A stretch of DNA of 64,000 bases from Escherichia coli (GTDB taxonomy: Bacteria > Pseudomonadota > Gammaproteobacteria > Enterobacterales > Enterobacteriaceae). Positions 24,908 through 41,473 of the stretch are shown here, in pieces (the first letter of the stretch is position 1; each line of letters opens with the position of its first letter). Both the position numbers and the translations under genes were made by a program. The stretch lies in the NCBI RefSeq assembly GCF_050920415.1, contig NZ_CP169309.1. One strand, 5' to 3'. The notes beneath the pieces are model-generated. The model searched no databases, was not told the DNA's origin, and saw nothing but the letters and a program-made list of their open reading frames with translations.

Positions 24908-27081
<2,174 letters not shown>

Positions 27082-34009: not shown

Positions 34010-34016
34010 TACGGTT

Positions 34017-34285
<269 letters not shown>

Positions 34286-34320
34286 CGCATTGCCCGATGC
34301 TGCAAAGGCATAAAAAGTCG

Positions 34321-34353
34321 ATGGCGTTGAATATTTTTTCAGCGCCATTTTTA
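34321..34353 (+). terminator. Possible intrinsic terminator closing the folC-dedD unit
   Basis: atggcg...cgccat stem with a 16-nt loop, followed by TTTTTA. Confidence 0.4.
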
Positions 34354-34377
34354 TTGAAGCGTGGGAAGGAAATCCCT

Positions 34378-34393
34378 ACGCAAACGTTTTCTT
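34378..34393. promoter_or_regulatory. PurR operator (PUR box) of the cvpA-purF operon
   Basis: acgcaaacgttttctt matches the PUR box consensus ACGCAAACGTTTTCNT, about 55 bp upstream of cvpA. Confidence 0.75.
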
Positions 34394-34449
34394 TTTCTGT
34401 TAGAATGCGCCCCGAACAGGATGACAGGGCGTAAAATCGTGGGACACAT

Positions 34450-36586: not shown

Positions 36587-37156
36587 ATGAAACGACTCAT
36601 TGTAGGCATCAGCGGTGCCAGCGGCGCGATTTATGGCGTACGATTATTACAGGTTCTGCGCGATGTCACAGATATCGAAACGCATCTGGTAATGAGCCAG
36701 GCGGCGCGCCAGACCTTATCCCTTGAAACGGATTTCTCCCTGCGTGATGTGCAGGCATTAGCCGATGTCACGCACGATGCGCGCGATATTGCCGCCAGCA
36801 TCTCTTCTGGTTCTTTCCAGACGTTGGGGATGGTGATTTTACCCTGTTCAATCAAAACCCTGTCCGGCATTGTCCATAGCTATACGGATGGTTTACTGAC
36901 CCGTGCGGCAGATGTTGTGCTGAAAGAGCGTCGCCCGCTGGTGCTCTGCGTGCGTGAAACACCATTGCACTTAGGCCATCTGCGTTTAATGACTCAGGCG
37001 GCAGAAATCGGTGCGGTAATTATGCCTCCCGTTCCGGCATTTTATCATCGCCCACAATCCCTTGATGATGTGATAAATCAGACGGTTAACCGTGTTCTTG
37101 ACCAGTTTGCGATAAATCTACCCGAAGATCTCTTTGCCCGCTGGCAGGGCGCATAA
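36587..37156 (+). CDS. ubiX: Flavin prenyltransferase UbiX
   Basis: 189-aa translation matching UbiX. Confidence 0.94.
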   Translation: MKRLIVGISGASGAIYGVRLLQVLRDVTDIETHLVMSQAARQTLSLETDFSLRDVQALADVTHDARDIAASISSGSFQTLGMVILPCSIKTLSGIVHSYTDGLLTRAADVVLKERRPLVLCVRETPLHLGHLRLMTQAAEIGAVIMPPVPAFYHRPQSLDDVINQTVNRVLDQFAINLPEDLFARWQGA

Positions 37157-37337
37157 CTCCGCTGTTGCCCTGTTTCAGGGCAATTTTGCAACCGCGATCA
37201 AATCCTCAACATTTTGTTCCTGCCATTCAATCGAAACGCTGCGATCCAACCGCCATACCTGCTATCTTCAACTTCAGGACAATAATGCAACGTCTTATTA
37301 ACATATTTAACGTTGGATGTTACTGTTGTCGTCAAGA

Positions 37338-37353
37338 TGGCATAAGACCTGCA
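37338..37353 (+). promoter_or_regulatory. Putative sigma-54 (-24/-12) promoter for argT
   Basis: TGGCAT-aagac-CTGCAT fits the GG-N10-GC sigma-54 pattern, about 70 bp upstream of the argT ATG; argT is known as nitrogen-regulated. Confidence 0.5.
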
Positions 37354-37420
37354 TGAACGAGCCTGCAAACACACAACACAATACACAACATAAAAAAGCC
37401 ATTTCACTTGAGGGTTATGT

Positions 37421-38203
37421 ATGAAGAAGTCGATTCTCGCTCTGTCTTTGTTAGTCGGGATTTCCGCAGCAGCTTCCAGCTACGCGGCGCTGCCGGAGAC
37501 GGTACGTATCGGAACGGATACCACCTATGCACCGTTCTCATCGAAAGATGCCAAAGGTGACTTTGTTGGCTTTGATATCGATCTCGGTAACGAGATGTGC
37601 AAACGGATGCAGGTGAAATGTACCTGGGTTGCCAGTGACTTTGACGCGCTGATCCCCTCACTGAAAGCGAAAAAGATCGACGCCATTATTTCGTCGCTCT
37701 CCATTACGGATAAACGTCAGCAGGAGATTGCCTTCTCCGACAAACTGTACGCCGCAGACTCTCGTCTGATTGCTGCCAAAGGTTCACCGATTCAGCCAAC
37801 GCTGGATTCACTGAAAGGTAAACATGTTGGTGTGCTGCAGGGATCAACCCAGGAAGCGTATGCCAATGATAACTGGCGCAGTAAGGGTGTCGATGTGGTG
37901 GCCTATGCTAACCAGGATTTGGTCTATTCCGATCTGGCTGCAGGACGCCTGGATGCCGCTCTGCAAGATGAGGTTGCTGCCAGCGAAGGTTTCCTCAAGC
38001 AACCTGCCGGTAAAGATTTCGCTTTTGCAGGCCCTTCAGTGAAAGACAAAAAATACTTCGGTGACGGCACCGGTGTCGGGCTACGTAAAGATGATGCTGA
38101 ACTGACGGCTGCGTTTAATAAGGCGCTTGGCGAGCTGCGTCAGGACGGCACCTACGACAAGATGGCGAAAAAGTATTTCGACTTTAATGTCTACGGTGAC
38201 TGA
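37421..38203 (+). CDS. argT: Lysine/arginine/ornithine periplasmic binding protein ArgT
   Basis: 260-aa translation with signal peptide, matching ArgT. Confidence 0.95.
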
Positions 38204-38258
38204 TACGTCGCAGGGAAGCTGTACCTGATGGAATGATCATGGTGCACGCCAGGTTTGT

Positions 38259-38275
38259 TGCACTATCGTGGTGCA
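38259..38275. promoter_or_regulatory. Putative NtrC binding site upstream of hisJ
   Basis: TGCACTA-tcg-TGGTGCA matches the NtrC consensus TGCACCA-N3-TGGTGCA with one mismatch; about 150 bp upstream of hisJ. Confidence 0.45.
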
Positions 38276-38420
38276 TTAAAATGCATACTTAAGCATTTTT
38301 AATGAAAAATAATACGTCTAACGGGGCGGGATATTTTGCCTTGATGGTCAATTTTATGGCACGATAAGTGTAACAAACCTGTAAATATTCCCTATAAAAA
38401 GACTGTCAGTTGAGGACATT

Positions 38421-39203
38421 ATGAAAAAACTGGTGCTATCGCTCTCTCTGGTTCTGGCCTTCTCCAGCGCAACGGCGGCGTTTGCTGCGATTCCGCAAAA
38501 CATCCGCATCGGTACCGATCCGACCTATGCGCCATTTGAATCAAAAAATTCACAAGGTGAACTGGTTGGCTTCGATATCGATCTGGCAAAGGAGTTGTGC
38601 AAACGCATCAATACGCAATGTACGTTTGTCGAAAACCCACTGGATGCGTTAATCCCGTCCTTAAAAGCGAAGAAGATTGACGCCATCATGTCATCGCTTT
38701 CCATTACGGAAAAACGTCAGCAAGAAATTGCCTTCACCGACAAACTGTACGCTGCCGATTCTCGTCTGGTAGTGGCGAAAAATTCCGACATTCAGCCGAC
38801 AGTCGAGTCGCTGAAAGGCAAGCGCGTAGGCGTATTGCAGGGCACCACCCAGGAGACGTTCGGTAACGAACACTGGGCACCAAAAGGCATTGAAATCGTC
38901 TCTTATCAGGGGCAGGACAACATTTATTCTGACCTGACTGCCGGACGTATTGATGCCGCATTCCAGGATGAGGTCGCCGCCAGCGAAGGTTTCCTCAAAC
39001 AACCCGTTGGTAAAGATTACAAATTCGGTGGCCCGTCTGTTAAAGATGAAAAACTGTTTGGCGTAGGGACCGGCATGGGTCTGCGTAAAGAAGATAACGA
39101 ATTGCGCGAGGCACTGAACAAAGCCTTTGCCGAAATGCGCGCTGACGGTACTTACGAGAAATTAGCGAAAAAGTACTTCGATTTTGATGTTTATGGTGGT
39201 TAA
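38421..39203 (+). CDS. hisJ: Histidine periplasmic binding protein HisJ
   Basis: 260-aa translation matching HisJ; paralog of ArgT. Confidence 0.95.
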
Positions 39204-39227
39204 TCGCCATCGGTGAAAGAAAGCCCG

Positions 39228-39251
39228 CTCCCTTCGGGTAACCGGAGGGAG
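39228..39251 (+). other. Intercistronic stem-loop between hisJ and hisQ
   Basis: ctcccttcgg-gtaa-ccggagggag, a 10-bp stem with one mismatch and no U-tract; could act as a partial terminator or mRNA stabilizer. Confidence 0.5.
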
Positions 39252-39292
39252 ACAAGAGGCGGTAATTCACCACACACGACAGGACAGGCAGC

Positions 39293-39979
39293 ATGTTGTA
39301 TGGGTTTTCAGGTGTTATTTTACAGGGTGCGCTCGTCACGCTGGAGCTGGCTATCAGCTCTGTAGTGCTCGCTGTAATCATTGGTTTAATTGGCGCTGGC
39401 GGTAAGCTCTCGCAAAATCGGTTTTCGGGGCTCATTTTTGAAGGGTATACCACGCTGATTCGTGGCGTGCCGGATTTAGTGTTGATGCTGCTGATTTTCT
39501 ACGGTTTGCAGATTGCACTAAACACGGTGACGGAGGCGATGGGCGTCGGGCAGATTGATATTGATCCGATGGTCGCAGGTATTATCACTCTCGGTTTTAT
39601 CTACGGTGCTTACTTCACCGAAACGTTCCGTGGCGCGTTTATGGCAGTGCCGAAAGGGCATATAGAGGCGGCGACGGCGTTCGGTTTTACTCGTGGGCAA
39701 GTGTTTCGGCGGATTATGTTTCCGGCGATGATGCGTTACGCTCTGCCAGGCATCGGCAACAACTGGCAGGTGATCCTCAAATCTACCGCTCTGGTTTCGT
39801 TACTCGGCCTGGAAGATGTGGTCAAAGCCACGCAACTGGCAGGCAAAAGTACATGGGAACCGTTCTATTTCGCCATCGTCTGTGGCGTGATTTACCTGGT
39901 TTTCACCACCGTTTCCAATGGTGTGCTGCTGTTCCTTGAGCGCCGCTACTCCGTGGGTGTGAAGAGGGCTGACCTGTGA
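39293..39979 (+). CDS. hisQ: Histidine/LAO ABC transporter permease HisQ
   Basis: 228-aa permease matching HisQ. Confidence 0.94.
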   Translation: MLYGFSGVILQGALVTLELAISSVVLAVIIGLIGAGGKLSQNRFSGLIFEGYTTLIRGVPDLVLMLLIFYGLQIALNTVTEAMGVGQIDIDPMVAGIITLGFIYGAYFTETFRGAFMAVPKGHIEAATAFGFTRGQVFRRIMFPAMMRYALPGIGNNWQVILKSTALVSLLGLEDVVKATQLAGKSTWEPFYFAIVCGVIYLVFTTVSNGVLLFLERRYSVGVKRADL

Positions 39980-40692
39980 TCGAAATCTTACATGAATACT
40001 GGAAACCGCTGTTGTGGACCGACGGTTATCGCTTTACCGGTGTGGCGATTACCCTTTGGTTGCTGATTTTGTCGGTTGTGATAGGTGGAGTTCTGGCGCT
40101 GTTTCTGGCGATTGGTCGCGTCTCCAGCAATAAATACATCCAGTTTCCAATCTGGTTATTTACTTATATTTTTCGCGGTACACCGCTGTATGTTCAATTG
40201 CTGGTGTTCTATTCCGGCATGTACACGCTGGAGATTGTTAAGGGTACCGAGTTCCTTAACGCCTTTTTCCGCAGTGGCCTGAATTGTACTGTGCTGGCGC
40301 TGACGCTTAACACCTGTGCTTACACCACCGAGATTTTTGCCGGAGCAATCCGTTCGGTACCGCACGGAGAAATTGAAGCCGCCAGAGCCTATGGCTTTTC
40401 GACCTTTAAAATGTATCGCTGCATTATTTTGCCTTCAGCGCTGCGTATTGCGTTACCGGCCTACAGCAATGAAGTAATCCTGATGCTGCACTCTACTGCT
40501 CTGGCGTTTACGGCCACGGTGCCGGATCTGCTGAAAATAGCCCGTGATATTAACGCCGCCACGTATCAACCTTTTACCGCTTTCGGTATCGCCGCGGTGC
40601 TCTATTTAATCATCTCTTATGTCCTGATCAGTCTGTTCCGCAAAGCGGAAAAACGCTGGTTGCAGCATGTGAAACCTTCTTCAACGCACTGA
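39976..40692 (+). CDS. hisM: Histidine/LAO ABC transporter permease HisM
   Basis: 238-aa permease matching HisM; ATGA overlap with hisQ. Confidence 0.94.
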
Positions 40693-40699
40693 GAATACG

Positions 40700-41473
40700 A
40701 TGTCCGAGAATAAATTAAACGTTATCGATTTGCACAAACGCTACGGCGAACACGAAGTGCTGAAAGGGGTCTCACTGCAAGCGAATGCCGGTGATGTCAT
40801 AAGTATCATCGGATCGTCGGGATCGGGGAAAAGTACCTTTCTGCGCTGCATTAACTTCCTCGAAAAACCGAGCGAAGGATCGATCGTCGTTAACGGCCAG
40901 ACGATCAATCTGGTGCGCGATAAAGACGGTCAACTCAAAGTCGCCGATAAAAATCAGCTGCGCTTACTGCGCACACGCCTGACGATGGTATTCCAGCACT
41001 TCAATCTCTGGAGCCATATGACGGTGCTGGAAAACGTCATGGAAGCGCCGATTCAGGTGTTAGGCCTGAGCAAGCAGGAAGCGCGCGAGCGGGCGGTGAA
41101 GTATCTGGCGAAAGTCGGGATAGACGAACGTGCGCAGGGGAAATACCCGGTGCATCTGTCCGGTGGTCAGCAACAGCGTGTTTCCATCGCGCGGGCGCTG
41201 GCGATGGAACCGGAAGTTTTACTGTTTGATGAACCTACCTCGGCGCTCGATCCTGAACTGGTAGGCGAAGTGCTGCGGATTATGCAGCAACTGGCAGAAG
41301 AGGGAAAAACCATGGTGGTGGTGACTCACGAAATGGGCTTTGCTCGCCATGTTTCTACTCACGTCATTTTTCTCCATCAGGGGAAAATAGAGGAAGAGGG
41401 CGCGCCGGAGCAGTTATTTGGCAACCCGCAAAGCCCTCGTCTGCAACAGTTCCTTAAGGGATCGCTGAAATAA
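40700..41473 (+). CDS. hisP: Histidine/LAO ABC transporter ATP-binding protein HisP
   Basis: 257-aa ABC ATPase with Walker A (GSSGSGKST) and signature (LSGGQQQR) motifs. Confidence 0.96.

Follow-up and report, generated by a model that had tools for sequence, protein, structure and literature searches.

Of the two verified control sites in the Escherichia coli argT-hisJQMP locus, the sigma-54 promoter is associated with one gene of the argT/hisJ pair and the strong NtrC site with the other. Both motifs are long-known nitrogen-starvation control sites of argT and hisJQMP and do not constitute a new kind of system. The best explanation of the data, which we regard as slightly on the probable side when its parts are taken jointly, consists of a near-certain core, namely a known locus and two published binding sites, and of a less certain wiring in which one NtrC enhancer would be shared.

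The argT-hisJQMP locus and its genes

The window, i.e. the whole stretch of 64,000 nucleotides that was analysed, harbors the argT-hisJQMP transport locus of the E. coli chromosome, a classical and already known target of nitrogen regulation (Ntr). In an E. coli record with 100% identity, RefSeq annotates the genes in the order purF-ubiX-argT-hisJ-hisQ-hisM-hisP. The following genes frame the sites described below:

36587..37156, + strand: ubiX, the upstream neighbour (RefSeq annotation of the 100%-identical E. coli record)
37421..38203, + strand: argT, lysine/arginine/ornithine-binding periplasmic protein (NCBIfam equivalog NF011586, 583 bits, cut-off 440)
38421..39203, + strand: hisJ, histidine-binding periplasmic protein (NCBIfam equivalog NF011965, 599 bits, cut-off 459)
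39293..41473, + strand: hisQ, hisM and hisP, the common permease and ATPase (NCBIfam matches, RefSeq annotation)

All five proteins ArgT, HisJ, HisQ, HisM and HisP scored above the curated cut-offs of their NCBIfam equivalog models (HisQ: 478 bits, cut-off 319; HisM: 465 bits, cut-off 306; HisP: 578 bits, cut-off 466). ArgT and HisJ share 69.5% identity, and HisQMP2 has been described as one permease/ATPase serving both binding proteins (PMC6640053). Together, the identity, the equivalog assignments and the published work support the sequence-only reading of two adjacent binding-protein paralogs with one hisQMP set. Rfam families were not found between 36400 and 39400 in a permissive scan.

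The region around the finding is present in 5425 of 5426 complete E. coli genomes. Since the control regions, namely the ubiX-argT and argT-hisJ spacers, are ~99% identical to those of K-12 MG1655, experiments performed with K-12 apply to the window sequence. K-12 has the same gene order and both motifs, and the differences found in the window are allelic only. The argT-hisJ spacer allele of the strain is rare (exact in 15/5364 genomes) and is distinguished from that of K-12 by a 3-bp ATC deletion beside an upstream NtrC half-site and by a change of TTGAAA to TTAAAA. The argT-hisJQMP systems of K-12 and Salmonella Typhimurium, with their argTr/dhuA regulatory regions, represent the same locus as that of the window. 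The NtrC site of Salmonella dhuA was reportedly footprinted by Ames and Nikaido in 1985 and is said to have helped to define the NtrC consensus.

A sigma-54 promoter precedes argT

A genuine sigma-54 promoter lies in front of argT:

37337..37353, + strand: argTp, sigma-54 −24/−12 promoter ATGGCATAAGACCTGCA, with GG at 37339-40, GC at 37350-51 and a predicted start at ~37364

The motif TGGCATAAGACCTGCA at 37338-37353 matches in every letter the sigma-54 ChIP-seq site OS22, which lies upstream of argT and was obtained with a fold above threshold of 12 (Bonocora 2015). The element TGGCAT-AAGAC-CTGCAT (37338-37354, + strand) is located 67 nt 5' of the argT ATG at 37421 and carries GG and GC dinucleotides 10 bp apart in the right orientation, as in the sigma-54 consensus TGGCAC-N5-TTGCW. 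The sigma-54-type element that had been proposed upstream of argT is therefore present at the proposed place and identical to a K-12 site bound in ChIP-seq.

The strength of the motif was evaluated with a weight matrix built from the 49 other sigma-54 ChIP-seq sites, argT excluded. With 14.6 bits, argTp ranked second in the window, where ~0.7 such matches are expected; in a 110-nt promoter zone on the correct strand a match of this strength is expected 0.0006 times. The simpler pattern TGGCAY-N5-YTGCW occurred twice in the whole window versus 0.44 expected. The top sigma-54 match (14.8 bits) is found inside flk, where no binding site has been reported, and because the highest-scoring match is thus unbound, motif score alone was rejected as evidence. 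The weight-matrix scan that had been suggested as a check consequently recovered the argT element at rank 2, but with a score that is not significant for the window as a whole and below the match in flk. By itself the argT motif is not significant window-wide, and it is convincing only with its context.

Further context is provided by binding surveys and by conservation. The ubiX/argT spacer gave an RpoN peak in gSELEX both with and without NtrC (Shimada 2021). In Salmonella Typhimurium, the counterpart of the window argTp is TGGCATAAGACCTGCATG; the site was bound by sigma-54 in ChIP-chip, and argT was 3.5-fold up in the presence of a promiscuous activator (Samuels 2013, PMC3844500). argT has accordingly been described as sigma-54/NtrC-dependent (PMC6640053; PMC3844500). 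In one scan of species-representative genomes, 80 Enterobacteriaceae loci with the order ubiX-argT-hisJ-hisQ were obtained and 78 were analysed; a −24/−12 element of at least 11.5 bits was kept 46-89 nt 5' of the argT ATG in 77 of these 78 loci.

The strong NtrC site lies between argT and hisJ

The argT-hisJ spacer contains two NtrC-related sequences:

38240..38246, + strand: isolated TGGTGCA half-site, 5' of the main dyad, adjoined by the 3-bp ATC deletion of the strain
38259..38275, + strand: NtrC (NRI) binding dyad TGCACTATCGTGGTGCA, the sole strong NtrC site of the locus

The dyad reads TGCACTA-TCG-TGGTGCA, and its centre is found 154 nt 5' of the hisJ ATG at 38421. It is a 17-bp dyad with perfect TGCAC-N7-GTGCA symmetry, one mismatch in 13 specified positions, and is the only site in the 64 kb within one mismatch of TGCACC-N4-TGGTGCA; TGCAC-N7-GTGCA occurs once in the window versus 0.07 expected. 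The argT start served as the anchor for converting K-12 coordinates (U00096.2) into those of the window (offset 1977). By this mapping, NtrC ChIP-seq peak 12, which showed a 23.7-fold signal and was assigned to hisJQMP (Brown 2014), corresponds to ~38214-38291 and includes the dyad. The near-consensus NtrC site that had been noticed upstream of hisJ is present as described and lies under this strong peak.

The dyad is placed at −116 relative to the predicted start of a degenerate sigma-54-like element in front of hisJ (see below) and at ~+903 relative to the verified argTp. As dimer sites, the E. coli spacer offers one full dyad and the TGGTGCA half-site, while two to three dyads are found in other genera. 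The zone of the half-site at 38240-38246 is occupied by complete second and third NtrC-like dyads in other genera, and Escherichia is without a 22-bp segment in which a further NtrC-like dyad is located elsewhere. Efficient oligomerisation of NtrC normally needs two adjacent dimer sites, as in the case of glnAp2.

That both motifs are chance matches without a regulatory role is a negligible prospect. The numbers for the sigma-54 pattern taken across the window (2 versus 0.44 expected, with 0.7 matches of at least 14.6 bits expected) would be compatible with it, but both sites are occupied in K-12 ChIP-seq on identical sequence and both are conserved, the argT element in 77/78 loci and spacer dyads in 91% of loci. 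The chance-match reading is refuted by the published binding data.

Control sequences upstream of argT

Two further features flank argTp:

37166..37182, + strand: perfect dyad TGCCCTGTTTCAGGGCA, centre at ~−190 from the predicted argT start
37366..37397, + strand: C/A-rich part of the 5' leader of argT, targeted by the small RNA GcvB, kept across genera

An NtrC-like site with up to three mismatches was found neither in the ubiX-argT spacer nor in argT in a scan of the window, and within 400 bp 5' of argT no such site with up to two mismatches was detected in Escherichia, Salmonella or Citrobacter. NtrC ChIP signal was nevertheless reported for argT. With 5.4-fold it is the weakest in the table of Brown 2014, in which the peak is commented as 'miscalled ... 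added from visual interpretation', and it maps to 37294-37374, centred on the sigma-54 promoter, a place without NtrC motif.

The dyad at 37166-37182 forms a 9-bp stem with UUUU after it, and from its sequence it is probably the terminator hairpin of ubiX. Its sequence does not vary among Escherichia, Salmonella, Citrobacter and Enterobacter. At the homologous position, an NtrC-like sequence with one to three mismatches is found in Klebsiella, Cedecea, Siccibacter and Kosakonia, and the E. coli dyad, which departs from the NtrC consensus at four positions, may in addition be a weak remnant of an NtrC site. The peak table of Brown 2014 contains no NtrC peak over it.

argT is listed as a verified or conserved target of the R1 seed of GcvB, and the hisJ-hisQ spacer is also a GcvB target (PMC9299463). 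The action of GcvB on the argT leader constitutes a post-transcriptional control layer.

The hisJ promoter region

Downstream of the NtrC dyad, the argT-hisJ spacer contains the following elements:

38280..38318, + strand: probable ArgR box pair (18 + 3 + 18 bp), register tentative
38336..38341, + strand: TTGCCT, putative −35 for sigma-70 at hisJ, beginning 17 bp past the predicted ArgR boxes
38356..38372, + strand: sigma-54-like element ATGGCACGATAAGTGTA, 48 nt 5' of hisJ, predicted start at ~38383

The sigma-54-like element and the sigma-70/ArgR promoter of hisJ had both been missed by the sequence-only reading. In the former, TGGCAC-GATAA-GTGTA, the −24 part is perfect, while the −12 part has GT instead of GC and thus departs from the GG/GC arrangement. 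It scored 12.4 bits, which corresponds to rank 5 in the window and to the 20th percentile of the ChIP-bound sigma-54 sites. Sigma-54 binding at hisJ was not reported in the E. coli ChIP-seq site list of Bonocora 2015, and the term 'hisJ' is absent from those supplementary files of that study that are in text form. Likewise, there was no sigma-54 peak at hisJ in E. coli gSELEX with or without NtrC (Shimada 2021), and no binding in the ChIP-chip/expression survey of Salmonella (Samuels 2013, PMC3844500). A −12 sequence GTGTA is compatible with sigma-54 binding, as seen for Salmonella hydN, TGGCACGATTCGTGTA (PMC3844500).

hisJQMP is described as transcribed from a sigma-70 promoter with weak ArgR repression (PMC6640053), and binding of ArgR 5' of hisJ has been reported (PMC6640053, PMC4381063). 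Two registers of the ArgR boxes, starting at 38270 and 38280, tie with 24/32 consensus matches, a value reached by 0.2% of shuffles; the register 38280-38318 was chosen because it fits the published position of ArgR '17 bp upstream of −35' (PMC6640053). A block ATGCATACTTAAGC in the ArgR box zone is invariant across the compared genera, as is the TTTGCC block at the candidate −35, and a hot spot from an evolution experiment at −86 (38335) adjoins this −35. A different hisJ promoter, TTGAAA-16-TTTAAT at 38276-38303, was predicted by Shimada 2014. Three candidates for the sigma-70 promoter can be named: TTGAAA-16-TTTAAT, TTGCCT with TGgCACGAT, and GTAACA-17-TATAAA.

Given this proximity, the dyad might mainly modulate a sigma-70 promoter of hisJ, either by occluding it, in the way NtrC acts at glnAp1, or by interfering with ArgR, instead of acting as a sigma-54 enhancer. 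In favor of such a role, the dyad adjoins the −35 of the Shimada 2014 promoter (TTGAAA in K-12, 38276-81) as well as the predicted ArgR boxes, which it overlaps in one register, and NtrC-like dyads are kept in lineages with a degraded hisJ −24/−12 element. However, nitrogen starvation raises hisJQMP and does not lower it (Brown 2014), the two predictions for the position of the sigma-70 promoter are incompatible, and activation is the expected outcome when NtrC is bound within ~1 kb of a sigma-54 closed complex. We consider this role improbable.

In nitrogen-starved cells, RNA polymerase occupancy went up in the promoter regions of all 21 units, hisJQMP among them, whether or not rifampicin was present (Brown 2014). 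This rise favors a nitrogen-induced promoter at hisJ itself. The sequence after argT forms a weak G·U-rich hairpin without proper U-tract, and published work treats argT-hisJQMP as one operon.

Comparison across Enterobacteriaceae

Among the 78 loci, NtrC-like dyads with up to two mismatches were present in the argT-hisJ spacer in 91%, compared to 0.3% of shuffled spacers. Upstream of argT, dyads of this quality were found in 33% of the loci, none of them from Escherichia, Salmonella or Citrobacter. The orthologous hisJ −24/−12 element reached at least 14 bits in 42/78 loci and has GC at −12 in most genera. In Citrobacter, Kluyvera and Franconibacter it is ATGGCACGATAACTGCA (17-18 bits), and Buttiauxella also has a strong element of at least 14 bits, TTGGCATGAAACATGCA. 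The −12 is altered to GTGTA in Escherichia and to CCGCA in Salmonella, and further alterations were observed in Enterobacter, Leclercia and Cedecea.

Both genes have the full set, NtrC-like dyads together with a strong −24/−12 element, in 12 loci, including those of Buttiauxella and Pseudocitrobacter. At the other end, 22 loci have neither a dyad upstream of argT nor a strong hisJ −24/−12 element, and all 22 keep the dyad in the argT-hisJ spacer. Dyads thus persist where the hisJ −24/−12 element scores low, although many of these 'low' elements keep the GC dinucleotide. When the ubiX-argT and argT-hisJ spacers were compared with each other for leftover similarity, a sign of a promoter copied along with the gene, local alignments were no better than those of shuffled sequences, except for the −24/−12 motif. 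Both paralogs likely once had their own NtrC/sigma-54 module, parts of which decayed differently by lineage.

This bears on the earlier description of the locus as a duplication with retained but separately wired regulation. Retained regulation fits Buttiauxella and Pseudocitrobacter, whereas separate wiring is not established for Escherichia: argT does have its sigma-54 promoter and hisJ its NtrC dyad, but each of these is only half a module.

Wiring of the two genes

According to the explanation that we prefer, phosphorylated NtrC would assemble at the intergenic dyad 38259-38275 under nitrogen limitation and, once bound there, would act by DNA looping on argTp ~0.9 kb upstream. The 'hisJ' NtrC site would then be an enhancer common to the locus, or one mainly serving argT, and hisJQMP would be induced by read-through from argT, by weak initiation at 38356-38372, or by both. 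That NtrC at 38259-38275 is a shared enhancer that reaches argTp over ~0.9 kb is, taken on its own, close to an even call or a little short of it.

Looping onto argTp is suggested because no other promoter nearby is stably occupied by sigma-54 and because action of NtrC from remote positions is known. The weak argT NtrC signal on a promoter without motif is what a loop-mediated contact would give. A shared enhancer is further indicated by the lack of NtrC-like sites 5' of argT in Escherichia, Salmonella and Citrobacter, by the spacer dyads kept in all 22 loci without argT dyad or strong hisJ −24/−12 element, and by the three surveys in which no sigma-54 peak was reported at hisJ. Read-through into hisJQMP is suggested since no convincing terminator follows argT and since argT-hisJQMP is treated as one operon in the literature. 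With the promiscuous activator in Salmonella, argT is listed as induced and hisJQMP is not (PMC3844500), and the missing hisJQMP argues against strong read-through in Salmonella. It also counts against a shared enhancer that E. coli has one full dyad and a half-site only. An argTp-lacZ fusion placed at the lac locus was still 2.4-fold responsive to loss of GlnK (PMC4958250); if the intergenic dyad was absent from the relocated fragment, argTp would be independent of it.

Alternatively, the two genes could be wired separately, with the dyad at −116 activating a non-canonical sigma-54 hisJQMP promoter at 38356-38372 and argTp being activated independently. In such an arrangement argTp would respond to NtrC from solution or to NtrC at the weak dyad 37166-37182. 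Dyad and promoter are spaced in a way similar to glnAp2, the dyad centre being 116 bp 5' of the predicted hisJ start; orthologous hisJ elements are near-consensus in 42/78 loci, and the E. coli element, at 12.4 bits, is inside the range of ChIP-bound sites. Sigma-54 is moreover bound at promoters with −12 sequences GTGTA (Salmonella hydN) and TTGTA (pspA, pspG), the relocated argTp-lacZ is still Ntr-responsive, and nitrogen starvation raises RNA polymerase occupancy at hisJQMP with and without rifampicin. On the other hand, sigma-54 occupies its promoters ahead of activation, but in three genome-wide assays argT was detected and hisJ was not; the top-scoring match of the window (14.8 bits, flk) is unbound, so that a score proves little; and hisJp is described as sigma-70-dependent (PMC6640053). 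Separate wiring is the main alternative and a credible one, but less likely than not.

The shared-enhancer wiring can be extended to an evolutionary reading. In Escherichia, argT would have lost its upstream NtrC sites and hisJ its −12 GC, a complementary decay after duplication that would have left a single composite module with a downstream enhancer. We put this forward tentatively and with well below even confidence. Read in this way, a dyad beyond the whole argT coding sequence would activate argTp, and read-through would feed hisJQMP.

Relation to known systems

The hisJ region resembles the glnA region, which comprises the sigma-70 promoter glnAp1, NtrC sites and the sigma-54 promoter glnAp2: one or more dyads lie ~110-140 bp 5' of a −24/−12 element, and a sigma-70 promoter is close to the NtrC sites. 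The full glnA-type layout at hisJ is found in Citrobacter, Kluyvera and Buttiauxella. Unlike glnA, hisJ of E. coli has a single full dyad, a −12 GT and no reported sigma-54 occupancy, and ArgR boxes are located between the dyad and the promoter.

Regarding action at a distance, glnA NtrC sites are reported to act remotely when moved (Reitzer and Magasanik 1986, cited in Brown 2014), and a natural remote NtrC site is found at relA, −838 to −649 (Brown 2014). The locus is similar to such remote NtrC enhancers in that hundreds of bp separate a strong NtrC site from its possible target; here the site is at ~+900 from argTp. In contrast to the moved glnA and the relA enhancers, the putative argTp enhancer would be downstream of the promoter, past the whole argT coding sequence. 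The artJ/artPIQM genes form a paralogous arginine-uptake cluster with two binding proteins, one permease/ATPase and ArgR boxes at sigma-70 promoters (PMC6640053), but no sigma-54/NtrC layer has been described there.

For the most part, the observation restates the established Ntr control of basic-amino-acid and histidine scavenging in E. coli and Salmonella. Of modest value is the disagreement of the binding data and the comparative sequence with a scheme of 'one promoter and one activator site per gene'; many genera have an intact −24/−12 element on the hisJ side, which is degenerate in Escherichia and Salmonella. If argTp is indeed driven by the dyad downstream of it, the locus would offer a simple natural system for testing how enhancers are shared and how regulation decays after duplication. 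If the composite module is also real, it would represent a natural downstream, intra-operonic bacterial enhancer and a case of complementary degeneration of cis-elements after gene duplication.

Regulatory features around argT

Besides the sigma-54 −24/−12 promoter argTp (37337-37353), argT was described to have a sigma-70-type promoter, which is overlapped by the sigma-54 site and is repressed by sigma-54 in vitro (Schaefer 2015, PMC4551910). Further features were located in the ubiX-argT-hisJQMP locus:

37166-37182, perfect dyad TGCCCTGTTTCAGGGCA immediately 3' of ubiX, strongly conserved
37366-37397, C/A-rich tract in the argT 5' leader, kept across genera
38356-38372, sigma-54-like −24/−12 element 5' of hisJ
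39204-39292, hisJ-hisQ spacer with a hairpin, CTCCCTTCGGGTAACCGGAGGGAG, and behind it a CA-rich tract

The dyad behind ubiX is predicted to fold into a terminator-like hairpin. In other genera its position is occupied by an NtrC-like dyad, and a second NtrC-like dyad, which Escherichia lacks, lies 30 bp further upstream. The tracts in the argT leader and in the hisJ-hisQ spacer match published targets of the small RNA GcvB, as these include argT and hisQ (PMC9299463).

Other sigma-54-like matches in the window

When the window was scored with a weight matrix built from 49 other sigma-54 ChIP-seq sites, the highest score was obtained for a match within flk, where no sigma-54 ChIP-seq site is reported. 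Because the best-scoring match thus has no reported site, caution is needed: motif score alone does not predict sigma-54 binding. This match and one near yfcZ are:

26819-26835, (−), CTGGCGCAACGTTTGCT, 14.8 bits, within flk
4080-4096, (+), CTGGCACCTTAGGTGCA, 10.9 bits, about 20 nt 5' of yfcZ

RpoN gSELEX peaks were described in the yfcZ/fadL and dedD/cvpA spacers, the latter at about 34010-34449 (Shimada 2021); both are absent from the high-stringency list of the Bonocora ChIP-seq survey (2015). Elsewhere in the window, the yfc fimbrial cluster includes a gene for a fimbrial adhesin of the StfH/YfcO family (14876-15721), which is a pseudogene with an internal stop according to the annotation of a 100%-matching reference record.

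Sequence variation upstream of hisJ

In this strain the argT-hisJ spacer (38225-38300) is a rare allele: of 5364 E. coli genomes, just 15 match it exactly. Beside the TGGTGCA half-site three bp (ATC) are deleted, and the predicted sigma-70 −35 reads TTAAAA instead of TTGAAA owing to a G-to-A change. By contrast, the region 38330-38420 is shared without any difference by 4310 of 5421 genomes.

The latter region contains the sigma-54-like element at 38356-38372, which was not among the motifs listed in the sequence-only reading. Its −12 is degenerate in Escherichia, whereas in many other genera the element is near-consensus. Base 38335, at −86 from hisJ, lies within an invariant TTTTGCC block that has the predicted ArgR boxes (38280-38318) on one side and the sigma-54-like element on the other. 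During laboratory evolution of hisD auxotroph co-cultures, all three possible substitutions at this base were repeatedly selected, and glnG V18E also appeared in these lines (PMC6415869). Since any of the three substitutions was beneficial, the selected changes at 38335 suggest the loss of some repressive element.
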